Source: a virus
IMG/VR virus record: IMGVR_UViG_3300028581_000013
Strand: one strand, 5' to 3'
DNA: 64,000 nt
Shown here one piece after another: positions 4,860 through 37,012 of the stretch. Within the stretch, counting starts at the first letter, position 1; each line of letters begins with the position of its first letter. The position numbers were made by a program, and so were the translations under genes. Below the pieces are notes generated by a model, which was given only the letters and a program-made list of their open reading frames with translations, was not told the origin of the DNA and searched no databases.

Positions 4860-5198
4860 ATGCCGGCAGCCTATTCAAATCTATACATCGAACAAGGTAC
4901 TTCTTTCACTACGACAATCACCGTTGATGATGTCTATGGAGATGTCTTTGATTTGACAAACTATACGGCTCAGAGCCAAATTCGTAAGTCACATTATTCC
5001 GCTAACACCACGGCTACGTTTACTACGAGTGTCAATTCTGGTCAAGGTTCAATTACTCTTAGTTTATCTTCAGCAGTAACGGCAAATATTGCCCCAGGTC
5101 GTTATGTTTATGATACCAAAATTATTGGAACAAATAATGGCCAAATTACAAGAATATTGGAAGGTTCTGTAGATGTTTCTCCATCAGTTACGAGGTAA
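4860..5198 (+). CDS. Virion structural protein (beta-sandwich, BppU-N-like)
   Basis: IEQGTSF...DLTNYTA..QIRK...GRYVYD...RILEG...P.VT pattern common in T4-like phages. Confidence 0.65.
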   Translation: MPAAYSNLYIEQGTSFTTTITVDDVYGDVFDLTNYTAQSQIRKSHYSANTTATFTTSVNSGQGSITLSLSSAVTANIAPGRYVYDTKIIGTNNGQITRILEGSVDVSPSVTR

Positions 5199-5201
5199 AA
5201 A

Positions 5202-5429
5202 ATGCCAGATCAAACCATAGGAACAGTAAGAGTACAAGTAGGTACAACAGTTAATCCAAGAGTTAGCTCGATTAATTATGGCGGTTCAGGTACAATTAAA
5301 GGTGCTACTGATGTTGATGTTAGAGGTGCTGCAGACGGAGAAGTTCTGGTATATAGAGCTGCAACCGATTCGTTTATTGTTGCACCAGTATCGGCCGCTG
5401 TGGCTGGACTAGACGCAGGAACATTCTAA
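5202..5429 (+). CDS. Small fibre-associated protein ending LDAGTF
   Basis: DVD...ADG.VLVY motif and C-terminal DAGTF. Confidence 0.6.
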   Translation: MPDQTIGTVRVQVGTTVNPRVSSINYGGSGTIKGATDVDVRGAADGEVLVYRAATDSFIVAPVSAAVAGLDAGTF

Positions 5430-5666
5430 GTGTCCAATACATCAATACAAATACTTCGGTCGTATGCAAATACGAGACCAACAACTCTCAATGATGGTGA
5501 GTTGGCTTATTCTTTTATAGCCAATACACTTTATATTGGTGATAGGACTGGTCAAATTATTAGAATTGGTGGTCTCACAACCACCGAAAATGCAGCAAAT
5601 ACAATAGTTCTAAGAGATTCAGCAGGTAATATAAATGTAGCTACCGTAGACGGTGGAAATTTCTAA
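5430..5666 (+). CDS. Small fibre protein with Mtd-N/hyaluronidase-N-like head, ending DGGNF
   Basis: IQILRS...L.DGELAY..LYIG; GTG start abuts the previous stop codon. Confidence 0.6.
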   Translation: MSNTSIQILRSYANTRPTTLNDGELAYSFIANTLYIGDRTGQIIRIGGLTTTENAANTIVLRDSAGNINVATVDGGNF

Positions 5667-5705
5667 ATAGTAATAGTGGTTAACGCCTAATAATAAGGAA
5701 AACAA

Positions 5706-7514
5706 ATGGCAAATACAAATATTTTAATCAAACGCTCGTCAAGCACAACCAGACCAAGTTCCCTGGCAGCTGGTGAGTTAGGTTATTCGTATCTATCGAA
5801 TACTCTTTTCTTAGGTACTGCCGCTGGTAACGGTGCCATCAACGTTGGTGGTGTCTATTATACTCAAGCAATCGACAATGCAACTTCGGCTGCAACTCCA
5901 GACACAATCGTTAAACGTGATGCTTCAGGTAATTCAACCTTTACAAACATCACAGTAACAGGATTCATTTCTGGTACAATTGACGGTGTTGCCAATGCTG
6001 CTGTCCGTCTACAGACACCAAGAAGTTTCTCTATTTCTGGTGGCGACATCTCTGCTACCGGCGTTAACTTTGATGGTACAGGTGCAGTTACATTAAATGC
6101 CTCACTTAATGCCATTCCAGGTCTAAGTGCTGGTTCATACGGTTCTTCTACTGCCATTCCAGTTGTTACTGTTGCCGCTAACGGACGTGTTACAGCCATT
6201 TCAACGCAGTCCATTTCCACATCATTTGGTCTTTCTGGTGATTCCGGTACAACTCAAATTGATGGTGGTGAAACACTATATGTGGTTGGTGGTGCTGGCA
6301 TCACATCGGCAATTACAGCCAACACAATTACATTAGATGTTGACACAACTGTTGTTCGTTCCAATACAGCAATCACAAGTCAAACAATTGATGGTTCTGT
6401 AACAATTGCTGGCAATTTAACAGTTCAAGGTATGCATACAACAGTTAATACAGCTACATTGAATGTTGTTGACCCATTAATTATTTTAGCTTCGAACAAT
6501 AGTTCTGATGCGGTTGACATTGGTTTTGCTGGACATTACACGGATGGTAGTAGTGTTGCAAGACATACTGGTTTCTTCCGTGATGCTGGTACAAAAGAAT
6601 ACTATGTATTTGATGGATACACTCCAGAATTAATTGGTAATAGTATCGATGTAGCCAACGCCAGCTTTAACACAGCAAACGTTAATGTTGGATATGTTAA
6701 ATCTACTGGCATTATTAACAATGGTATCAATTTAGATACTCATATTCAAGGTCTATACAACCTTGCCAATACAACATCAACAACAGCAAGTAATGCAAAT
6801 GCTAATACTATCTACACACAAGGCGTAGATGCAACACAAAATACCAACATTACTCATGCTGATACCAAGGCACAAGCTGCTTTCGATAAGGCAAATAATG
6901 CTGTAGTAGCATCAACTGACTTTACGTTTGGTCAGATGGTTGTTGCAGATGGTACAGATTCGTTAAAGAGTCTTGCCAATGCTTCTTATACATTAACTGG
7001 TTCTTTAGCTGCTGCTAAAACAATCACATCACTTTCAGTTGACAATTATGGTCGTGTAACTGCTGCTACTGGTGCTGATATTGCAATTAATGCATCACAG
7101 ATTACTGCTGGCACATTGGGTGTTGAAAGAGGCGGTACAGGCCAAGGTTCATTTACAAATGGTGCAATTCTTGTTGGTAATGGCTCAGGCGCTTTACAAA
7201 CTCTTGCTAACTCAACATACACAGCAACAGGTTCTGGTGCCGCTAACAATACAGTATCTTCGTTAAGTGTTGATGCTTATGGTCGTGTAACAGCTGCAAC
7301 GTTCTCTGCAATCTCTGGTCTAACAATTGGCCAAGGCGGTACAGGTCGTTCAACATTTACTACTAACGGTCTAGTATATGGTAACTCTACTGACGGACTA
7401 TTAGTAACTGCAGCTGCTGGTACTTCTGATCAAACATTTAGTAATCAACTTCTTACTGTTACTAATGCTGGTGTTCCGGTTTGGACAAGTGCTCTTGATG
7501 GAGGCACATTCTAA
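5706..7514 (+). CDS. Tail fibre protein
   Basis: ILIKRS..LAAGELGY head, VD.YGRVTAA repeats, GGTG repeats, ends LDGGTF; AAGGA RBS. Confidence 0.75.
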   Translation: MANTNILIKRSSSTTRPSSLAAGELGYSYLSNTLFLGTAAGNGAINVGGVYYTQAIDNATSAATPDTIVKRDASGNSTFTNITVTGFISGTIDGVANAAVRLQTPRSFSISGGDISATGVNFDGTGAVTLNASLNAIPGLSAGSYGSSTAIPVVTVAANGRVTAISTQSISTSFGLSGDSGTTQIDGGETLYVVGGAGITSAITANTITLDVDTTVVRSNTAITSQTIDGSVTIAGNLTVQGMHTTVNTATLNVVDPLIILASNNSSDAVDIGFAGHYTDGSSVARHTGFFRDAGTKEYYVFDGYTPELIGNSIDVANASFNTANVNVGYVKSTGIINNGINLDTHIQGLYNLANTTSTTASNANANTIYTQGVDATQNTNITHADTKAQAAFDKANNAVVASTDFTFGQMVVADGTDSLKSLANASYTLTGSLAAAKTITSLSVDNYGRVTAATGADIAINASQITAGTLGVERGGTGQGSFTNGAILVGNGSGALQTLANSTYTATGSGAANNTVSSLSVDAYGRVTAATFSAISGLTIGQGGTGRSTFTTNGLVYGNSTDGLLVTAAAGTSDQTFSNQLLTVTNAGVPVWTSALDGGTF

Positions 7515-7552
7515 GTAATACTATATAATTTTTTTATAATAGGGAGTTTGAA

Positions 7553-8158
7553 ATGGGTAATGAAAAGTTTGTTAATTATTATATTGAGGGATTGATTACT
7601 ACATTAAATGATTGTTTGATAAGAAACATTTCATTACAAGCAAATGACAGAATCAGCAAAGAAATAATTGAGGAACACACTAAGAAGGTTGAAGGTTTAG
7701 ATGGTACTATTAATGCTCTTAAAGTAGATTTAGAATCTGCTAAAAAACAGCAAAATGATTCTGATAATCAACGTTATCAAAATTTAGAAAATAGTATCAA
7801 AGACCATGTAAACACAATCAACACATTGAATCAGGAGATTTCTCAGTTAAAAACAATGAAAGCTGAATATGAAAATGTTAAACATCAAGTACAACATGTA
7901 GACACTTTCAGAACCGAGTTAAACAAAACACGGGAAGAATTAAATAATGTTCGTGTTGATAATGAAAAAATTATTGCTGATTTAACTAGTTCGTATGAAT
8001 TAAAAATTAAAGAACTAAATGATAAGATTGACTATTTACAATTAACTCCTGCTAAAAGAAAAAAAGTTGAGGAAGTAAAAAAAGAAGTTACTGAAACACC
8101 AACATTGGATGTTTTTAGTAATTCGGAAGATACACTCAAAGATGGCGGAAGTTTTTAA
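7553..8158 (+). CDS. Coiled-coil protein ending DGGSF
   Basis: Charged heptad-rich sequence; GGGAG RBS. Confidence 0.65.
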   Translation: MGNEKFVNYYIEGLITTLNDCLIRNISLQANDRISKEIIEEHTKKVEGLDGTINALKVDLESAKKQQNDSDNQRYQNLENSIKDHVNTINTLNQEISQLKTMKAEYENVKHQVQHVDTFRTELNKTREELNNVRVDNEKIIADLTSSYELKIKELNDKIDYLQLTPAKRKKVEEVKKEVTETPTLDVFSNSEDTLKDGGSF

Positions 8159-8163
8159 GGTAA

Positions 8164-8655
8164 ATGGCAAACACAACAGTACAGTTAAAGAAATCAGGTG
8201 TAACAGGTAACGTACCACCTTCACTATCGTATGGTGAGTTGGCGTTAAACTACGCTGATGGAAAACTGTTCTATAAAGCCTCAAATGGTTCAATCGCTAG
8301 TATTTCTACTAGCCCAGCAACCGATTCTTTTGCTACAATCAATGCTAATTCTTCTCTGATATTAGCAACTTCTCCGTATGATACACTATCAATTCTTCCT
8401 GGTAATAATATTACCATATCTACGGACACATTTAATAAAAGAATCACAATTAATTCTACAGCAAGCGGCGGTGGCGATTCAACCGATCAATTTGCCAGAG
8501 ATAAAGCCAATTCAGCCAATGTTTTGGCTCAAGCGGCTTTTGATCAAGCAAACACGGGAGCAGGAACTTATACGATAACCGGTGGTCAATATATAGACCA
8601 CGGTTGGATACCCCAAACACCGGGTCCAATATTATTCGATTACGGAACACTATAA
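8164..8655 (+). CDS. Fibre-associated protein
   Basis: VQLKKS..LSYGELALN.ADGKLFYK head; ends FDYGTL. Confidence 0.65.
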   Translation: MANTTVQLKKSGVTGNVPPSLSYGELALNYADGKLFYKASNGSIASISTSPATDSFATINANSSLILATSPYDTLSILPGNNITISTDTFNKRITINSTASGGGDSTDQFARDKANSANVLAQAAFDQANTGAGTYTITGGQYIDHGWIPQTPGPILFDYGTL

Positions 8656-8658
8656 ATA
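8651..8658 (+). promoter_or_regulatory. T4-type late promoter TATAAATA
   Basis: Exact consensus upstream of gene 8680. Confidence 0.65.
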
Positions 8659-8679
8659 TACATATAAGTTGGAAAAAAT

Positions 8680-10572
8680 ATGGCAGCTAACAATTCTACT
8701 ATAGTTCAAATCCGTAGAGGTACTACGGCACAGACAGCATCTTTTACTGGTGCTTTGGCCGAACTCACGGTTGATACAGACCAAAAAACAGTTGTTGTTC
8801 ATGATGGTGTAACTCTAGGTGGTACAACACTTGCAACTAAATCATTTGCTCAAGCGGCTTTTAATGCAGCCAATACTGCCACAGGTACAGTTGGTCAATT
8901 AGCATTTGATAAAGCCAATTCAGCCAATGTGTTAGCACAGGCATCATATAATTTTGCAAACACAATTGCTGCTGGTGCTATTTCTAATGTATCATTAACA
9001 TTTTCTAATACTGCTTCTGGTACAATACCAGCAGTTAACAGTTTAAAACCAGGTGAACCATCTATCAATCTAATTGATGGTAGAATGTTTATTCAATTAA
9101 ACAATGGTCAAATTATTGATATATCTTCTGCACCAACAGGTAACACTTGGCATGTGGCAATGAATGGTAACGATAACTTTAAAGGTGATACACCAAGTGC
9201 CGCTAAGGCAACCATTCGTGCAGCTGTAGCTCTGGCACAACCTGGTGATTCTGTTGTAGTTCATTCAGGAACATATACAGAAATTACACCAATTATTATT
9301 CCACAGAATGTTCAAGTACAAGGTTCTGGTGAAAGAACTTGTATTATTAAACCAACAACAACTTCTAATAATGTTTTCTATGTAAACAATAACAGTTATG
9401 TAACTGGTTTTAAATTTATAGAATATACTGGTGCCGCTGTTTCTTTTCCAACAACTACATTAGAAACAGGTACAGCACAAGCCGGTGGTGCAAATACAAT
9501 TACTTTAAATTCTGGCGCATCGACTTACACCGATCATTATAAGAGTATGAAAGTTACTATTACTGGTGGAACAGGATCAGGACAATCAGCCAATGTTTCT
9601 TCTTACAACGGCACAACAAAAGTTGCCACAGTAGATGCAAACTGGTCAACACAACCAAATAATACTTCTGTATATTCTTTAGGCATACCACTTAGAAATT
9701 CACCTGCAGCTGCAAGTTCTAGGTATACCACATACATTACTGGTAGTCCATACATTTATAATTGCTCGTCAATCACAACGACAGGAACAGGCATCAAAAT
9801 CGATGGAGATTTGGCGACAGGCAACAAGAGTATTATCTCTGCACAATTCACTCAGGTCAATTCTGGTGGTACGGGGATACATGTATTGAATGATGGTTAC
9901 ACACAGTTGGTTTCCATTTATGGTATTTTCTGTGATACGGCATTCTTAGCCGAATCAGGTGGTACTGCTTCAATGGGTAACTGTAACGTAAACTTTGGTA
10001 ACAAAGGTTTAGTTGCCAACGGTAAAGGTAAGTTGGCGATGACAGCTAATTTGTCAATGACTAGTGCTGAAGCAACTTTTACAATCGACCTAAATAATGT
10101 CGTAGCGAATAGTGCTTTGGGAATCACAGCAACTATTCCATACACAGGTTTGATTATGAAAATAGATGGAGATGCAGCTGAAAGTTATTATCCTGTTACT
10201 GAAGCAACAACATTAAGTGGTGGTAATACAACAGTAACATTCCAAAACTCAATTGCAAATTCATTCTCAAGTGGAACAGGTGTTAAATTTTATCAGCAAA
10301 GTCAATTGAGAGCATCCGGCCAGACTTTTGAATATGTTGGTGCTGGTACATCAATTAATGCTTTACCTAAGTTAGGTGGTATTGCTAACTCGGCTGCACA
10401 GATAATTGGAATTGATGAAGGTGCTGTGTTTGCTACTTCAACAGACCAAAGTGGTAATTTTGTTGTATCTGATTTAACGATTAATCAGTCAACATCTACG
10501 ATTTCAGGAAGAACCTTTTCGAAAAGTCTTTTTGCTGAAATGACTCCTTATATACTCGCTCTAGAAGGTTAA
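8680..10572 (+). CDS. Fibre/spike protein with Mtd N-terminal domain and beta-helix-like region
   Basis: VQIRRGT...FTGA.AELTVDT.....VHDG...GG (Mtd_N); V..NG.D...G....A.ATI.AA...GD.V.V..G.Y.E (pectin-lyase-like N-cap). Confidence 0.7.
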   Translation: MAANNSTIVQIRRGTTAQTASFTGALAELTVDTDQKTVVVHDGVTLGGTTLATKSFAQAAFNAANTATGTVGQLAFDKANSANVLAQASYNFANTIAAGAISNVSLTFSNTASGTIPAVNSLKPGEPSINLIDGRMFIQLNNGQIIDISSAPTGNTWHVAMNGNDNFKGDTPSAAKATIRAAVALAQPGDSVVVHSGTYTEITPIIIPQNVQVQGSGERTCIIKPTTTSNNVFYVNNNSYVTGFKFIEYTGAAVSFPTTTLETGTAQAGGANTITLNSGASTYTDHYKSMKVTITGGTGSGQSANVSSYNGTTKVATVDANWSTQPNNTSVYSLGIPLRNSPAAASSRYTTYITGSPYIYNCSSITTTGTGIKIDGDLATGNKSIISAQFTQVNSGGTGIHVLNDGYTQLVSIYGIFCDTAFLAESGGTASMGNCNVNFGNKGLVANGKGKLAMTANLSMTSAEATFTIDLNNVVANSALGITATIPYTGLIMKIDGDAAESYYPVTEATTLSGGNTTVTFQNSIANSFSSGTGVKFYQQSQLRASGQTFEYVGAGTSINALPKLGGIANSAAQIIGIDEGAVFATSTDQSGNFVVSDLTINQSTSTISGRTFSKSLFAEMTPYILALEG

Positions 10573-10576
10573 TAAA

Positions 10577-10918
10577 ATGGCAACACAAATTCCATTAAAT
10601 ACATTTAAAACAACAACAGCCAACGTTACAACGTCAACGACAACCGTATATACCACACCTGCTGGTGTAACAACTGTTGTTCTGTTGACACAAGTTTCAA
10701 ATATTGATCCTACTAATTCTGTAACTGTTTCGGCTAACCATGTTCGTAGTGGTAATTCAGTATCACTTATTAAAAATACAACCATACCTGTTAGTGATGC
10801 TGCAAGTCTGTTAACTGGTAAATTAATATTACAAACTGGAGATTCATTCTCAATTAGTGCTAGTGCAAACGACAGAGCACAATTGGTATTATCTTATCTC
10901 GAAACTGCTAACGCTTAA
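10577..10918 (+). CDS. Small beta-sandwich adaptor-like virion protein (paralog 1)
   Basis: TVYT.P...V.N...IP....L.L..GD...LSYLE; similar to 15176 and 32300. Confidence 0.65.
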   Translation: MATQIPLNTFKTTTANVTTSTTTVYTTPAGVTTVVLLTQVSNIDPTNSVTVSANHVRSGNSVSLIKNTTIPVSDAASLLTGKLILQTGDSFSISASANDRAQLVLSYLETANA

Positions 10919-12015: not shown

Positions 12016-13419
12016 ATGCCATTAAATGAAACCTCGAACACTACGGTACAATTTACAGTAACTACAACCAACACAGCCGATGGTACCACATTGTATTGGA
12101 AGACCACGGGTAACACCACCAATTCGGATATTGTTGGCGGTAATACGGGTTCTATTACAGTTACAAATAATCGTGCTGTATGGAATGTAACAATTTCAGC
12201 GGATGATGCTACAGATGGAACTAAAACTTTAGGTATTCAAATTCTTACTGGCTCATTAGATGGTACACCAGTAGTAAATACCGCAAGCCCAATTGTAATT
12301 ACTGATACCTCTCAAACACCAGACTATGGTTATTTGTATACATGGGGTAATAACACATACGGAGTTTTAGGTACCGGAGGTGGGGGTGTTTTAAGTCCAG
12401 TTCAAGTTGGATCTCTAACAACTTGGATGAATATTTCTGCTGGTCACAATCATACTATATCAAAAAAATCTGATTATACTTTGTGGGCTTGGGGATTTAA
12501 CGGTAACGGACAATTGGGTAACAATAGTATAACTTCAGTAGGTAGTCCTATACAAATTGGAAGCGCTACGAATTGGAATAAAGTTTCAGCCGGATACAAT
12601 ACTTCATTTGCAATCAAAGACAACGGCACATTATGGGCTTGGGGTGATAATTCATATAGACAATCAGGTATAGGATATGGAGGACCTGGTTATTTTACCT
12701 ATGTACCAACACAAGTAGGATCATTAACAACTTGGGCAGAGGTTGTCGGTGGATATACTCACACATTAGCAGTTAAAAACGATGGTACCTTGTGGGTTTG
12801 GGGTACAAATGGAAATCCAAGTAATACTGGTGCTTTAGGATTAAATGAATCTAGCCCATATGTAATAACAGATAGTCCTGTGCAAAATGGATCATCAACA
12901 AATTGGTCAAAAGTTTCCGCTGGAACTCGAAATAGTGCAGCAATTAAAACTGATGGAACATTGTGGACTTGGGGAGCTCCAGGACTATCTCTTGGTCATA
13001 ACACTACATCTCATAGGTCCAGTCCAACACAAGTCGGAACAGGAACAAATTGGTCAAACGTTTCTATGAGTGGTGATAGAGCTCTAGCAATCAAAACCGA
13101 TGGAACACTATGGGCATGGGGAAATAATAATCGAGGCCAATTAGGTACAAATAACACAAATAATTATTCCAGTCCTGTTCAGATAGGAACCGATACAACT
13201 TGGCGTGAAGTTTTTTGTGGTAAAAATAATGAATTTACACTAGCAACTAAAACAAATGGTACATTATGGTCTTGGGGATTGGGCAATGCAGGTGGCGGCA
13301 CCAGTCCGTTAGGATTGGGTTCAACCACTAGTAGATCAAGTCCCGTTCAAGTCGGAACAGGAACAACTTGGTTGCGAGCCACATCCACTCTATATGCTGG
13401 CCTGGCTATATTAGGTTAA
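12016..13419 (+). CDS. RCC1/BLIP-II repeat beta-propeller with N-terminal Calx-beta-like domain
   Basis: About 7 repeats of AIK.DGTLW.WG.N..G.LG....SP.Q(V/I)G..T.W. Confidence 0.85.
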   Translation: MPLNETSNTTVQFTVTTTNTADGTTLYWKTTGNTTNSDIVGGNTGSITVTNNRAVWNVTISADDATDGTKTLGIQILTGSLDGTPVVNTASPIVITDTSQTPDYGYLYTWGNNTYGVLGTGGGGVLSPVQVGSLTTWMNISAGHNHTISKKSDYTLWAWGFNGNGQLGNNSITSVGSPIQIGSATNWNKVSAGYNTSFAIKDNGTLWAWGDNSYRQSGIGYGGPGYFTYVPTQVGSLTTWAEVVGGYTHTLAVKNDGTLWVWGTNGNPSNTGALGLNESSPYVITDSPVQNGSSTNWSKVSAGTRNSAAIKTDGTLWTWGAPGLSLGHNTTSHRSSPTQVGTGTNWSNVSMSGDRALAIKTDGTLWAWGNNNRGQLGTNNTNNYSSPVQIGTDTTWREVFCGKNNEFTLATKTNGTLWSWGLGNAGGGTSPLGLGSTTSRSSPVQVGTGTTWLRATSTLYAGLAILG

Positions 13420-13827: not shown

Positions 13828-15165
13828 ATGGCATTTCCAACCTCACCGGCAAATAATCAAACCGCTCTAGTAAACGGCATTGTTTATCAATGGAATGCTG
13901 CGCTTGGTGCTTGGAAAAGAAACGGTTCAATTAACTCCGCTACTATCGGCCAATTAGTTTTATCTTCAGGACAAATCTCCACATCAAATGTATCAGGCAC
14001 GTTAATCGTTTCTGGTGGTGTAGGCATCACAGGTAATTTATATACAGGTGGCATTTATGTTACTGGTGCCAATGGTATTACATTCTCAGATGGTTCGGTA
14101 CAAACATCTGCTGGCGCTTCAGCGGCCACAGGTGCAGCTGCTTTTGATCAAGCTAATGCGGCCAATCAATATGCTAATTCAGCTTATGCTCAAGCTAATG
14201 CAGCCAACTCTTTAGCTGGTTCAGCTTACGGCCAAGCAAACGCAGCCTTTGCACAAGCTAATGCGGCCAATCAATATGCTAATTCGGCCTTTGCAAAAGC
14301 CAATACTGTAGCCAGTGATTTAGCAAACTTTAGTTCTTTGTTTGCTGGTATTGAAGTAACACAAAATACTAGAATTGGTAATGCAGAAACACAAACACAA
14401 GCCGCTTTTGATAAAGCAAACTCAGCCAATGTACTGGCACAGGCAGCTTTCAATACAGCCAATACAAAATTCTCATCATCTGGTGGTACAATTACTGGTG
14501 ATACAGTAGTAACAGGAAACTTAACAATTACTGGTGCCACCGTATATGCAAACACAGAAAACTTAACTGTCAAAGATAACATCATTACATTGAATTCAAA
14601 TGTAACTGGTGCACCTTCTTTAAGTGCTGGTATTGAAGTCAATCGTGGTTCTTCTACCAATACAAAACTATTATGGTCTGAAGCCAATACGGCTTGGGAA
14701 TTTACCAACAACGGAACAACTTACGAAAAGATTGCTGGACTAACATACGTTCAAGCAGCCTTTAATGCAGCTAACACTGCTGGTGGTGCTGATACATTTG
14801 CTAGACAAACAGCCAATGCTGCATTCACTCAAGCTAATACAGCAACAACATTAGCACAAGCAGCCTTTAATAAAGCAAACACATCTGATGCCGTATTAAC
14901 TTCTACTGTTGATACATTCACAGGTGATGGTTCAACTGTTGCATACACATTATCAACAACACCAGCAACTATTAACTATACAACGGCTGTGATTGGTGGT
15001 GTTACACAACCAAGGTCTGCTTACTCTGTTGTTGGAACAACACTTACATTTACCTCTGCACCAGCCAATACTCAGATTATAGAAGTAACAACAATTGGTA
15101 CATCCAATACCACACTATATACAGTTAATAATATTATTAGTCCATTCTTATTGATGGGCGCTTAA
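13828..15165 (+). CDS. Tail fibre/stalk protein
   Basis: N-terminal FPTSP..Q..NG..YQW module, AxxAN coiled coil, one FTGDG..Y.L domain, ends PFLLMGA. Confidence 0.7.
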   Translation: MAFPTSPANNQTALVNGIVYQWNAALGAWKRNGSINSATIGQLVLSSGQISTSNVSGTLIVSGGVGITGNLYTGGIYVTGANGITFSDGSVQTSAGASAATGAAAFDQANAANQYANSAYAQANAANSLAGSAYGQANAAFAQANAANQYANSAFAKANTVASDLANFSSLFAGIEVTQNTRIGNAETQTQAAFDKANSANVLAQAAFNTANTKFSSSGGTITGDTVVTGNLTITGATVYANTENLTVKDNIITLNSNVTGAPSLSAGIEVNRGSSTNTKLLWSEANTAWEFTNNGTTYEKIAGLTYVQAAFNAANTAGGADTFARQTANAAFTQANTATTLAQAAFNKANTSDAVLTSTVDTFTGDGSTVAYTLSTTPATINYTTAVIGGVTQPRSAYSVVGTTLTFTSAPANTQIIEVTTIGTSNTTLYTVNNIISPFLLMGA

Positions 15166-15175
15166 AGGAAATAAA

Positions 15176-15505
15176 ATGCCAATAACATATAAAGTTCTAG
15201 GACAAATTAACCCAACAGCACACACAGCAACAACTGTGTATACTGTGCCATCTCTTACAAGTACCATATTGAGTACTGTTACAGTATGTAATCAGGCAAA
15301 CACAGGTGCTACATTTAGATTGGCTGTTCGGCCATCTGGTGAAGCACTTGCAGCTAAACATTATATTAACTATGATACTCCCGTTCCAGGTAATGATACT
15401 GTTTCGTTAACACTCGGTATTACATTGGCTGCTACAGATGTTCTTACTGCCAATGCAAATACTTCTTTTGTAAGCATCAATGCATATGGTAGTGAGATTA
15501 GTTAA
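15176..15505 (+). CDS. Small beta-sandwich adaptor-like protein (paralog 2)
   Basis: YKVLGQ..P....TVYTVP...VCNQ...GITLA..DV...GSEI. Confidence 0.7.
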   Translation: MPITYKVLGQINPTAHTATTVYTVPSLTSTILSTVTVCNQANTGATFRLAVRPSGEALAAKHYINYDTPVPGNDTVSLTLGITLAATDVLTANANTSFVSINAYGSEIS

Positions 15506-31649: not shown

Positions 31650-32294
31650 ATGACATACTCTCAGCTTCCTTTTAATGGACAAACCAAGATTATCAATGGT
31701 GTCAGCTATGTGTATACGTCTGCAAATAATTCTTGGACTGTAGGCACAGGTATACCAAGTTCAACCGAAATTGTTTATGCTGATGTTGTATACATTACTA
31801 GCACCAATGGTATAAATTTTTCTGATGGTACAAGACAAACCACAGCGGTAGCATTAGACTCTTGGGTTCGTGGCCATGCAAATGCTTCTTATAATACAGC
31901 CAATGCTTCGTTTACAAAAGCAAATACTGGTGTAACACTAGCACAAGCTGCTTATGATTTTGCCAATAATTTAAGTGGTGGTACCGCACAAGACGGATTT
32001 GCCAGAAACGTAGCCAATACGGCTGCATCCAATACAGTTATACTTCAAGGTGTTAATGTTACTCAGAATACCAATATATCGAATTTAACTTCTTGGTTGA
32101 GTTCTAATATATCTTTAATTGATGGTATTAATTCAACACAGAATACCGATATCAATACAGCAACTAATTTAGCGCAATCTGCATACAACATAGGTGTTGC
32201 AGCAAATACAACAGCAAGTGCAGCAAATACAACAGCAAGTGCGGCCGCATCAACCGGCAAAGCAATTGCTCTTTCAATAATTTTTGGAGGTTAA
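31650..32294 (+). CDS. Fibre stalk protein ending KAIALSIIFGG
   Basis: NG..Y.Y...W N-terminal module, F.DG..QT.A, AxxAN repeats. Confidence 0.65.
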   Translation: MTYSQLPFNGQTKIINGVSYVYTSANNSWTVGTGIPSSTEIVYADVVYITSTNGINFSDGTRQTTAVALDSWVRGHANASYNTANASFTKANTGVTLAQAAYDFANNLSGGTAQDGFARNVANTAASNTVILQGVNVTQNTNISNLTSWLSSNISLIDGINSTQNTDINTATNLAQSAYNIGVAANTTASAANTTASAAASTGKAIALSIIFGG

Positions 32295-32299
32295 TTTAA

Positions 32300-32674
32300 A
32301 TGGCAGCACCAAATATATTATCAGTTACTTCAATTACAGGAAAATCGGTGAGTTCTCGGCCAGCTAACACAGCTACATACAGTATATTGTCTAATGCTGC
32401 CAGTAGTAATCGAGTATATAAAATTAATTCAATTATATGTTCAAATCAGAATGGCGCATCGACAGTTACCGCAAACGTATTTTATAATACGGCCGCCAAT
32501 GGTGCCGGTGCAAACAATGCTTTAATTCTTTTTGCAAGTGTACCTGCTCTTTCTACTTTGGTTGTATCAGACAAAACAACTTCATTTTATTTGGAAGAAA
32601 ACGCTTCGATTACTGTTTCTTCAGGAACAAGTAATGGTATCTCATTCTTAGTGAGTTATGAAGATATAGCATAA
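32300..32674 (+). CDS. Small beta-sandwich adaptor-like protein (paralog 3)
   Basis: AAPNI..V..I.GK...KINSI...N...VPA.STL...YLEE...SYEDI. Confidence 0.7.
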   Translation: MAAPNILSVTSITGKSVSSRPANTATYSILSNAASSNRVYKINSIICSNQNGASTVTANVFYNTAANGAGANNALILFASVPALSTLVVSDKTTSFYLEENASITVSSGTSNGISFLVSYEDIA

Positions 32675-36505: not shown

Positions 36506-37012
36506 ATGGCACGCACACTACAATTTAAACGATACGGTTCAGCAACATTGGCCAATACAACTGGTGCCAATGGTGAATTAATTATTAATAGTACCAATAA
36601 AACTTTAACTGTTCATGATGGTATAACTCCCGGTGGATTTACACTATTGAATGAAGCAATTGAAATAGACATTGATCAATATGCTCGTAATACTGCCAAC
36701 AGTAAATTGTCGTTAAGTGGTGGTACTGTTACTGGTAATTTAGCCGTAACAAATACAATAACATCTTCAAACATTGTTTCAAGTAACACAATCACTTCAA
36801 ACAATTTAATTGTTACTGGTGTTTTTACTGTTGATGGTGTTGTATTGCAATGGCATACACCAATACCTTTAACATCTAAAGGTGATCCAGGTGATAAAGC
36901 CGGATTTATTGCAATTGATAATGATAAATTATATCGTTGTGTGGAAAATTATACCAATGGCGCTAATAACATTTGGCGTTTTGTAAATTTTACTGGCGGC
37001 ACTTGGGGCTAA
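36506..37012 (+). CDS. Mtd-N domain fibre protein
   Basis: LQFKR...TGA.GEL....TL.VHDG.T.GG; C-terminal G..G..A.D...LY.C......W. Confidence 0.7.
   Translation: MARTLQFKRYGSATLANTTGANGELIINSTNKTLTVHDGITPGGFTLLNEAIEIDIDQYARNTANSKLSLSGGTVTGNLAVTNTITSSNIVSSNTITSNNLIVTGVFTVDGVVLQWHTPIPLTSKGDPGDKAGFIAIDNDKLYRCVENYTNGANNIWRFVNFTGGTWG

Follow-up and report, generated by a model that had tools for sequence, protein, structure and literature searches.

In bacteriophage T4, assembly genetics and electron microscopy have established that gp36, a trimer, attaches to the N-terminal part of gp37 (PMC3004832). In BPP-1, Mtd trimers are located at the tail fibre ends (PMC2408619), and the beta-prism of Mtd is presumed to be the part that attaches to the fibre (PMC10743442). 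In the T5-like phage DT57C, the collar that holds the lateral fibre on the tail is a dodecamer of LtfC, and the hold depends on beta-strand augmentation (PMC10713586). The window analysed here, a 64,000-nucleotide stretch (IMG/VR record IMGVR_UViG_3300028581_000013), comes from a T4-like aquatic phage with a 136-kb genome. We consider it probable that a single segmented fibre, either a lateral or a long tail fibre, is the product of its genes 4860 to 10572 and would be assembled in gene order through joints between a C-terminal tag and an N-terminal head.

Layout of the fibre gene module

The module starts with an LtfC-like gene at 4860, which the initial annotation did not include; nor did it mention the sixth tagged protein or the fifth head, at 36506. 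The genes of the module, and the other tagged or head-bearing genes of this genome, are as follows.

4860–5198, + strand: LtfC-like beta-sandwich protein, 112 aa (PHROG 3304, phrog_1084)
5202–5429, + strand: tag-only adaptor without head, 75 aa; tag LDAGTF at 5409–5426
5430–5666, + strand: minimal link, 78 aa; head IQILRSY..GEL, short hairpin and tag VDGGNF at 5646–5663
5706–7514, + strand: main shaft segment, 602 aa; head ILIKRS..GEL, repeat-rich shaft and tag LDGGTF at 7494–7511
7553–8158, + strand: coiled-coil protein without head, 201 aa; tag KDGGSF at 8138–8155
8164–8655, + strand: adaptor segment, 163 aa; head VQLKKSG..GEL and DYGTL-type tag FDYGTL at 8635–8652
8680–10572, + strand: terminal fibre, 630 aa; canonical Mtd_N head, internal head-like domain and tip domain, no tag; ends ..ILALEG
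10577–10918, + strand: small conserved gene after the terminal fibre gene, 113 aa (phrog_1276, 1.3e-11)
36506–37012, + strand: orphan head protein, 168 aa, Mtd_N (27.0 bits; head HMM 2.7e-15), no tag upstream
Outside the window: sixth tagged protein, a membrane protein ending KLDGGDF

The 4860 product is likely a collar or anchor on the virion side, where the fibre starts. It matches PHROG 3304 'L-shaped tail fiber protein assembly' (1.2e-22) and phrog_1084 (1.7e-25), and is 49% identical to the product of a syntenic gene of Prochlorococcus phage MED4-213. Pfam LtfC (PF23926) aligns over the whole domain at 23.4 bits (E = 9e-5), which misses the gathering cut-off of 27, so we call the protein LtfC-like and do not claim proven membership. 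The 5202 adaptor would be the first link of the chain. Its homologues, 73–84 aa long, are always encoded after the LtfC-like gene; their C-termini read DAGxF, NGGSF, DGGTF, DSGRY or DNGFF. The GTG start of 5430 abuts the TAA stop of the adaptor gene with the frame unchanged; the partners of a joint lie 0, 39 and 24 nt apart, and at joint 3, between the 602-aa and 163-aa segments, the coiled-coil gene intervenes. The shortest homologues of the 78-aa link, at 65 aa, hold a head and 17 further residues, that is, nothing except head and tag. In the AF2 monomer model of this link, the head strands reach a pLDDT of ~80 and tag residues 74–78 stay below 50; this model suggests a tag that is unstructured by itself and says nothing further about it.

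The match of the main shaft segment to phrog_15769 extends through the final residue, and its last 110 aa are 43% identical to the homologues of MED4-213 and P-HM1, which end IDGGTF. Residues 1–132 of the 8164 product share 48% identity with the N-terminal part of a 627-aa tip fibre in contig L021; that fibre has no tag, and no head gene lies downstream of it. The terminal fibre matches phrog_17885 tail fiber (3.8e-71) and carries its second, internal head-like domain at aa 111–153. A 112–113-aa gene also follows the tip gene in contigs L086, L088, L089, L091 and L138; the 10577 product is possibly a chaperone or accessory protein, and its membership of the module is uncertain. The fibre would be made of five or six separate proteins.

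The five consecutive C-termini given in the initial annotation (LDAGTF, VDGGNF, LDGGTF, KDGGSF and FDYGTL) were confirmed exactly. The N-termini of 5430, 5706, 8164 and 8680 are also as quoted there, and a custom head HMM built from the fibre loci detects them at 2e-15 to 4e-26 (5430, 4e-26; 5706, 3e-22; 8164, 2.5e-23; 8680, 2e-15). The gathering cut-off of Pfam Mtd_N (PF18454), 26.3 bits, is passed only by 8680 (53.3 bits, E = 2.6e-14) and by 36506 (27.0 bits), and the 8680 head aligns with residues 2–63 of crystallised Mtd (PDB) at E = 2.6e-12. The heads of 5430, 5706 and 8164 have no Pfam match at E ≤ 0.1 and are tied to Mtd_N through the custom profile only, which recovers Mtd at 2.9e-9. 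Among the best 150 head-family representatives, 31 also carry a C-terminal tag. In addition, an internal head in three single-chain proteins is preceded by ..IDG, in the same register as ..IDGGxF-stop-MANT.

Distribution of the tag and its coupling to heads

The strict motif DGGxF occurs four times in the whole genome (~167 genes, 44,152 residues), and all four occurrences are the final five residues of a protein; chance alone would give ~0.56 occurrences overall and 0.002 at C-termini (Poisson P ~8e-13). A looser tag pattern gives six C-terminal matches against 0.10 in shuffles, and in MED4-213 the motif is likewise C-terminal in 2/2 cases. The C-terminal position of the tag is non-random. 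Moreover, across 93 unique tags synonymous codons are used for Asp, Gly and Phe, and the stop codon varies as well; therefore the tag is no ribosome-binding artefact. It is under selection at the protein level.

Our main comparison set consisted of 80 LtfC-anchored viral contigs from related phages, in which the LtfC-like gene lies directly upstream of the tag-only adaptor gene. All sufficiently long loci follow one grammar: LtfC-like anchor, tag-only adaptor of 73–84 aa, 0 to 3 segments with head and tag, and a tip with a head only. No first protein carries a head, and no last protein carries a tag. The genome-wide check of tag/head adjacency that the initial annotation had proposed revealed coupling: a head gene comes next after a tagged gene in 63/91 unique pairs and after an untagged gene in 1/689 (Fisher 2e-69), and a second, unrelated contig set, recruited by a different head subfamily, gives 39/46 against 8/228 (4e-32), both sets of counts being inflated because the contigs within each set are related phages. 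In the LtfC-anchored contigs, the present genome and MED4-213, the orphan 36506 is the sole head without an upstream tag; the gene before it encodes a gp15-like sheath stabiliser (phrog_227 'tail sheath stabilizer'). Several Mtd_N heads in other phages also have no tag upstream, and the coupling is therefore common, not universal.

Tags appear and disappear together with the next head. In the KKSG-head family, seven of the nine tagged members precede a head gene, the other two are followed by no called head gene and only by a 35–39-aa ORF, and all five untagged members precede a non-head gene. Subtypes are paired as well. DAGxF tags precede LRSY heads, DGGxF and NGGSF tags precede KRS heads, D-[YFL]-G-x-[LIV] tags precede RRG heads, and tags without Asp are found only before K-[WFYH]-S heads, a covariation that may rest on few evolutionary events.

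Proposed assembly and its alternatives

According to our model, the LtfC-like collar protein would hold the 75-aa adaptor, to which the 78-aa, 602-aa and 163-aa segments would be added in turn, with the 630-aa tip at the end. All junctions would be of one kind, in which the C-terminal peptide of the proximal protein meets the N-terminal head of the distal one. The peptide would have the form hydrophobic-x-hydrophobic-Asp-Gly/aromatic-Gly-x-Phe/Leu-COOH, and the head would be a beta domain of ~48 residues of the T4 gp37-N or Bordetella Mtd_N type (I-x-I/L-K/R-R/K-S/G ... G-E-L). The three tags of a proximal trimer, disordered alone, might adopt an ordered form at the apex of the distal head trimer; there the Asp and the free carboxylate could plausibly lie opposite the head's conserved basic pair, with the aromatic end residue in a pocket. 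The five-residue tag itself may insert into the head. Only the x position (N, T or S) distinguishes the tags of joints 2 and 3 from one another, and the tag by itself is therefore unable to encode the order of assembly; joint-specific pairing of tag and head subtypes may set it instead.

A tag could alternatively serve as a cap for C-terminal folding or trimerisation, or as a signal recognised by chaperones; the next head would then be contacted by the folded terminus of the segment. In phage fibres that are trimers, folding commonly starts at the C-terminus and is helped by chaperones (T4 gp57A, gp38; PMC3004832), terminal fibres have another C-terminal motif (..ILALEG, ..AFSIALG), and near-identical tags occur at different joints. 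Against this, coiled-coil and membrane proteins with no fibre body to fold bear the tag, the 65-aa proteins are head and tag alone, tagged members of the KKSG-head family precede a head gene in 7/9 cases and untagged ones in 0/5, and the tag subtype tracks the head subtype; we regard the cap as unlikely. Still less probable is the parallel binding of all tagged proteins to one hub, such as the LtfC-like collar or a baseplate protein, which would give a set of short fibres or a branched bundle. The branched hubs known from CBA120 and G7C provide a precedent; the tags are closely alike, and the coiled-coil tag is surplus at joint 3. Parallel binding would leave the headless first protein, the tagless last one and the 0 to 3 intervening links unexplained and the heads without a partner, and the precedents in T4 and BPP-1 are serial.

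We give very little weight to a covalent cross-link, a spontaneous Lys-Asp/Asn isopeptide bond as in HK97 capsids or SpyTag, with the Asp or Asn of the tag, a head Lys and the Glu of GEL as the reactive triad. Tags do have Asp or Asn followed by Gly, a pair prone to succinimide formation, and most KRS-type heads have the Lys and nearly all heads the Glu. The triad is not invariant, however, as LRS and RRG heads have no Lys there and one tag clade has neither Asp nor Asn, and T4 gp36 and gp37 reportedly ran as separate bands on the SDS gels of King and Laemmli. The least probable reading is that the tag is a Shine-Dalgarno-like GGAGG/GGTGG or translational-coupling signal that reads by chance as Asp-Gly-Gly. 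Gly-Gly codons can spell GGNGG, and two downstream starts lie 0–5 nt past the stop. This nucleotide-level reading is refuted by codon variation, since the 93 unique tags use all four Gly, both Asp, both Phe and all three stop codons; in addition, the 24–39 nt spacers have their own AAGGAA or AGGGAG, and the terminal Phe would be left unexplained.

Serial chaining of separate gene products through putative tag/head junctions, as the initial annotation had suggested, is thus the preferred reading, and it is strongly supported by the gene grammar, adjacency, correlated gain and loss, subtype pairing and the T4 and BPP-1 parallels. The alternation of tags and heads that was part of that suggestion is not strict, because the coiled-coil protein adds an extra tag between two fibre segments. 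In the genome as a whole, six tags face five heads. The 7553 protein has a tag and no head, as first described, and has weak coiled-coil Pfam matches only. In its family alignment (A6), the N-terminal helix is conserved and is followed by a coil whose length varies, an LTPAKRKK linker and the tag. In at least four clades its gene likewise comes after that of the ~600-aa segment and before the next head gene. We found no functional PHROG match and no T4 relative for it. It would be an accessory of joint 3 and may act as a cap, branch or chaperone. The sixth tagged protein passes through the inner membrane four times, and its gene lies between those of DNA polymerase and UvsX; the predicted cytoplasmic tail of this protein bears the tag in about half of the homologues. 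Our tentative suggestion is that the GGxF-COOH tag might be a portable address label, also grafted onto non-fibre proteins and recruiting them to free fibre heads. If so, tag mimics would tether, time or cap fibre assembly, for example if they retained head-bearing segments at the membrane or kept a joint blocked until the right partner arrives.

Comparison with described fibre systems

The closest parallel is T4, where gp36 ends DFGYY-COOH and LDAGTF, VDGGNF, LDGGTF and FDYGTL at the joints of the window likewise read Asp-x-Gly-x-aromatic/hydrophobic. Across Tevenvirinae, the DFGYY tail does not vary even where gp36 identity falls to 40%. T4 gp37 begins with the same type of head (IQFKRS..GELAINL; 5e-14 by the head HMM from these loci), and the two genes are adjacent in the proximal-then-distal order of the window. 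Unlike the module described here, T4 uses the joint once, with gp34, gp35 and gp36 joined otherwise, and starts its fibre from gp9/gp34 instead of an LtfC-like protein. The tags here are mostly Gly-Gly-x-Phe, whereas that of T4 is Phe-Gly-Tyr-Tyr.

In BPP-1, bbp9 lies upstream of Mtd (PDB 1YU0), and Bbp9 ends ..ADLGGIA. The 8680 head is 66% identical to BPP-1 Mtd (tblastn). BPP-1 has only one joint; its virion is podovirus-like, and its C-type-lectin tip is diversified by a retroelement. The present phage, by contrast, is a T4-like myovirus with several joints and a module without a retroelement. Tail motifs also precede Mtd_N heads in CRP-3 (DFGSI), HTVC008M (DLGSVA), the T7-like S-TIP37 (DFGTL) and AH02 (NLGGLA). 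We found no solved structure that contains a tag/head joint.

LtfC and LtfA of DT57C are a precedent for short terminal strands as fibre connectors, and the present module likewise opens with an LtfC-like gene. In DT57C, however, the fibre N-terminus enters LtfC and no tag/head joint has been described, whereas here the partner of the LtfC-like protein would be the 75-aa adaptor. CBA120, G7C and phiKp24 likewise join separate receptor-binding proteins to one another through small N-terminal docking modules, in a modular and exchangeable design, but these systems branch sideways through T4 gp10-like XD domains, and the grammar here is linear. Pfam and PHROG searches detected no gp10-like XD domain in the fibre module.

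The same pair of elements is found at T4 gp36/gp37 and at BPP-1 Bbp9/Mtd, and the module can therefore be read as a four-fold iteration of a known joint. The gp36–gp37 joint itself is already known; what distinguishes the present module from T4 is its repetition, predicted from sequence, four times in series, with a link as short as 78 aa among the joined parts.

The tagged gene series and its heads

The stretch belongs to a single-contig genome of 136,428 bp from a T4-like aquatic myovirus, whose gene set includes gp13/14/15-, gp17-, gp18-, gp20- and gp23-like proteins, DNA polymerase and UvsX, among others. ORF translation returned exactly the five reading frames and C-terminal tags listed in the initial annotation, just behind an LtfC-like gene.

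Tagged genes and the gene preceding them
4860-5198: LtfC-like gene, PHROG 3304 at 1.2e-22 (Pfam LtfC 23.4 bits, under the cut-off)
5202-5429: 75 aa, C-terminus ..LDAGTF
5430-5666: 78 aa, C-terminus ..VDGGNF
5706-7514: 602 aa, C-terminus ..LDGGTF
7553-8158: 201 aa, coiled-coil protein, C-terminus ..KDGGSF
8164-8655: 163 aa, C-terminus ..FDYGTL

The N-termini of 5430, 5706, 8164 and 8680, the last being the terminal tip fibre, likewise begin as annotated, with I/V-x-I/L-(K/L/R)-(R/K)-(S/G) and G/A-E-L about 12 residues on. Their assignment as Mtd_N-like heads stood in Pfam for 8680, a canonical Mtd_N domain (53.3 bits) whose residues 6-67 align with residues 2-63 of crystallised Mtd, the BPP-1 receptor-binding protein (2.6e-12). 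The heads of 5430, 5706 and 8164 fall under the Pfam threshold for Mtd_N and were assigned through a profile from the collected viral loci, which unites the four heads at E = 2e-15 to 4e-26. A related head profile recovers Mtd from the PDB at 2.9e-9. The module region had no blastn match among cultured phages, and the 602-aa protein had none in the PDB by sequence search.

The tag pattern is more than chance. Strict DGGxF occurs four times in the whole genome (~167 genes, 44,152 residues), each time as the last five residues, where ~0.56 occurrences are expected anywhere and 0.002 at the C-terminus (P ~ 8e-13). A looser pattern gives six C-terminal matches genome-wide versus 0.10 in shuffles. 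Prochlorococcus phage MED4-213, with a genome of 181 kb, has [DN]GGxF twice, both times C-terminal and in the syntenic genes.

Genes 5202-5429 and 5430-5666 share a reading frame, with one TAA between them and a GTG start right after it (window 5427-5432), and gene boundaries in relatives L006-L008 suggest the same arrangement. Read-through of this stop codon was rejected as a general rule because in L010 and L012 the homologous genes have a one-base overlap and lie in different frames. The 8680 protein carries a second, internal head-like domain at residues 111-153 (window 9010-9138; ..SLKPGEPSINLIDGRMFIQLNNGQ..), which comes after a short helical AQAAFxxAN repeat region and is kept in relatives L008, L086, L088 and L091.

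The genome holds six tags and five heads, so counted with the two genes listed below. The sixth tag is on a protein with four hydrophobic, predicted transmembrane segments, encoded between DNA polymerase and UvsX, and its tagged tail is predicted to be cytoplasmic by the positive-inside rule. The protein matched no Pfam or PHROG family. Among its viral-contig homologues, 36 of 77 end in [LV]DGG[DK]F or LDSGNF after variable linkers and the remainder stop just past a conserved PKYDYxxEFAFKEK motif, so the tag is an optional add-on kept in a subset. The fifth head has no tag on the gene upstream; its protein might form a fibre of the neck or whisker type, or pair with a surplus tag. The extra tags may fill this orphan head or may compete at a joint.

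Sixth tag and fifth head
G000:C1:22532-23593 (L139:133-1194:-; window-relative 75142-76203, outside the window), minus strand: membrane protein ending ..KLDGGDF
36506-37012, plus strand: orphan Mtd_N head, 168 aa, directly after the gp15-like tail sheath stabiliser

The coiled-coil protein 7553 has a tag and no head. In at least four clades a protein of this type is encoded after the ~600-aa segment and ahead of the head gene that follows, and its stop and start codons often overlap or almost touch those of its neighbours. The cyanophage version is 68-71 aa long and ends ..PDDF. Searches for 7553 gave neither a relative in T4 nor an informative PHROG match; the protein could serve as a chaperone, a branch or a structural knee. 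Tags on membrane and coiled-coil proteins hint at a control of assembly not known from T4.

Coupling of tag and head across phages

Eighty viral contigs were collected with the LtfC-like gene as anchor, their genes being crude longest-ORF calls. Where contigs are long enough, the LtfC-like gene is followed by a 73-84-aa protein that carries a tag but lacks a head, then by n proteins with both head and tag, and finally by one that has a head but lacks a tag. The number n is 0 in L009, L011, L018, L019 and L025, 1 in cyanophages including MED4-213, 2 in L016, L017 and L023, and 3 in the phage of the window and in L006-L008. Among unique adjacent pairs, a head gene comes next in 63 of 91 cases after a tag and in 1 of 689 without one (Fisher 2e-69), counts that are inflated by descent since the contigs are relatives. 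In 24 of the 28 exceptions, a ~550-660-aa head+tag segment precedes a small coiled-coil gene, which in longer loci itself precedes a head gene. Three others have only a short ORF (45-55 aa), probably spurious, after the tagged gene, and the last is the membrane protein. In a second contig set, recruited with the unrelated head subfamily P0006, a head follows 39 of 46 tags versus 8 of 228 genes without a tag (4e-32). The docking of tags into heads proposed in the initial annotation implied a statistical coupling across genomes, and both sets show such a coupling.

Gain and loss of the tag can also be followed within one orthologous head family (x-x-L-K-K-S-G-x-T-G-N-V-P). Seven of its nine tagged members precede a head gene, the other two (L087, L098) having only a 35-39-aa ORF and no called head gene downstream; all five untagged members precede a small non-head gene. 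In addition, residues 1-132 of the window's 163-aa protein are homologous to the first part of the 627-aa tip fibre of L021, so a tip becomes an adaptor when the tag module is added.

Upstream gene ends were examined in eight diverse cultured phages with Mtd_N heads, and five have a related motif at the end of the upstream fibre gene.

Upstream fibre gene ends in cultured phages
BPP-1: Bbp9, ..ADLGGIA
Roseophage CRP-3: ..DFDFGSI
Pelagiphage HTVC008M: ..VDLGSVA
T7-like cyanophage S-TIP37: ..IDFGTL
Pseudomonas phage AH02: ..VNLGGLA

The motif is marginal in Vibrio K437b. Tag-head coupling is common and not universal, since S-SSM7 and Psa21 have no upstream tail motif and small Mtd_N proteins (69-152 aa) in other contigs have no tag upstream. 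A single-head query of genome contigs returned one locus.

Tag and head also vary together by subtype.

Tag subtypes and the heads that follow
DAGxF (and DSGRY, DNGFF): ..QILRSY..
DGGxF or NGGSF: ..I-x-I-K-R-S..
DGGSF of the coiled-coil protein: ..L-K/R-K-S-G..
D-[YFL]-G-x-[LIV] plus 0-2 extra residues: canonical Mtd_N, ..Q-x-R-R-G-T-T-A-Q..

In one clade the Asp is lost from the fibre tags (Q/S/K/V/T-GG-S/T-F), and at both joints concerned the second basic residue of the head is replaced by an aromatic residue or His (K-W/F/Y/H-S). This pairing, perhaps only one or two events, would fit a contact of the Asp or carboxylate with the basic pair. Numbering the tag/head joints 1-4 along the series, the tags of joints 2 and 3 differ solely at x; assembly order must therefore also depend on residues neighbouring the tag.

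Terminal fibre proteins share another motif at the C-terminus, a hydrophobic stretch closed by Gly or Ala, which marks fibres without a tag; relatives end ..AFSIALG or ..AFAIALG. Small genes of ~110-125 aa lie directly behind several terminal fibre genes. One of them (phrog_1276) recurs behind the tip gene in relatives, and its product is marginally similar to that of 15176-15505 (E = 0.06). These genes may encode fibre chaperones or accessory proteins.

Hydrophobic C-termini and small genes behind terminal fibres
10554-10572: ..YILALEG (8680)
13401-13419: ..AGLAILG (12016)
15147-15165: ..PFLLMGA (13828)
32276-32294: ..LSIIFGG (31650)
10577-10918: small gene, phrog_1276
15176-15505: small gene
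32300-32674: small gene

A candidate tag-in-head joint and its alternatives

We propose that each fibre segment would be a parallel trimer, and that the proximal trimer's three C-terminal tails, flexible alone, would take up an ordered form at the apex of the head trimer that follows. D-x-G would make the turn after the last strand, and the terminal aromatic side chain with the free carboxylate would form the plug. When the 78-aa link was modelled as a monomer with AF2, pLDDT was ~80 in the head strands and below 50 at residues 74-78; a Foldseek search of this model against the PDB gave nothing at E <= 0.001.

Some link proteins of 65 aa consist of the head and 17 further residues with the tag at the end, and nothing else. 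Head+tag links also make up 31 of the top 150 head-family representatives. Three single-chain proteins (P0002, P0008, P0064) contain an internal head with ..IDG placed 4-5 residues before its first strand, which matches the register of ..IDGGxF*MANT at split joints; a fourth case is weaker. These three observations support the idea that tag and head are the functional ends. No natural tag+head fusion was found within the collected loci, where internal motif matches are unrelated. Internal head-like domains were limited to the 8680-type second domain in the first two contig sets, and one weak case came from a third set. At 50% identity, 21,525 clusters match the head profile (E <= 1e-3), with the head nearly always at residue 1. 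Four long proteins (P0001, P0003, P0015, P0082; 859-1699 aa) have 4-11 internal head-like repeats, tandem heads in one chain; among the matches inspected, those of P0001, P0015 and P0082 have no tag-like motif before the heads.

Four other readings of the tag were considered. A folding cap or chaperone signal is rather unlikely, as the tag sits on non-fibre proteins too, 65-aa links exist, and the tag is gained and lost together with the following head. Parallel binding of all tagged proteins to one hub is less probable still and would leave the headless first protein and the tagless last protein unexplained. We rejected a covalent isopeptide joint, to which we give very little credence, for want of an invariant Lys. 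The chance that the tag is a nucleotide-level artefact is slighter yet. The motif is selected as protein: the 93 unique tags from related contigs use all four Gly, two Asp and two Phe codons and all three stops, and this codon variation refutes such an artefact. Together with the downstream genes 24-39 nt away, which carry their own ribosome-binding sites, it also led us to reject a Shine-Dalgarno origin.

In this module and its relatives, the joint comes down to two small sequence elements, a 5- to 6-residue C-terminal tail and a ~48-residue N-terminal cap, and it is reused serially and very widespread. This would offer a simple annotation rule for which 'hypothetical' phage genes form one fibre and in which order. 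With only 65-78 aa, the minimal link proteins would lend themselves to structural studies of the joint, which is also a candidate connector for building modular fibres in laboratory phages.

Comparison with known fibre junctions

That several proteins make up the long tail fibre of T4 is well established, and to our knowledge there is no atomic description of its gp36-gp37 joint. The PDB copy searched contained no chain with such a head except isolated Mtd. We found no literature describing the C-terminal motif, but as coverage was incomplete a published description may exist.

In DT57C, a T5-like phage, LtfC is a dodecameric collar that grips the lateral fibre by beta-strand augmentation (PMC10713586). 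By analogy, the 4860 product is likely to anchor the fibre on the virion side, with the 75-aa protein as its adaptor.

In the T4 record, gp36 ends ..VQDFGYY, and gp37, encoded by the next gene, begins MATLKQIQFKRS..GELAINL and matches the head profile from the collected loci at 5e-14. Where gp36 of Tevenvirinae contigs shares only 40% identity with T4 gp36, the tail (DFGYY(S) or DFGTY) and the gp37 head are kept. Across L221-L244 (Tevenvirinae), the last five residues of gp36 are invariantly DFGYY, sometimes with an added Ser and once as DFGTY, and in most of these loci the gp37 start codon lies 8 nt past the gp36 stop. In T4, gp36 forms the proximal portion of the distal half-fibre and, as a trimer, binds gp37 at its N-terminal region (PMC3004832). 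In BPP-1, Mtd trimers are located at the tail fibre ends (PMC2408619), and the N-terminal beta-prism of Mtd is its presumed attachment domain (PMC10743442). A tail motif followed by a head therefore marks two experimentally known junctions. The gp36-gp37 pair of T4 has the same succession of tail motif and head as the window module, whereas the window module uses the joint four times in series. The module is best read as a repeated form of the gp36-gp37 joint, pared down to a minimal link.
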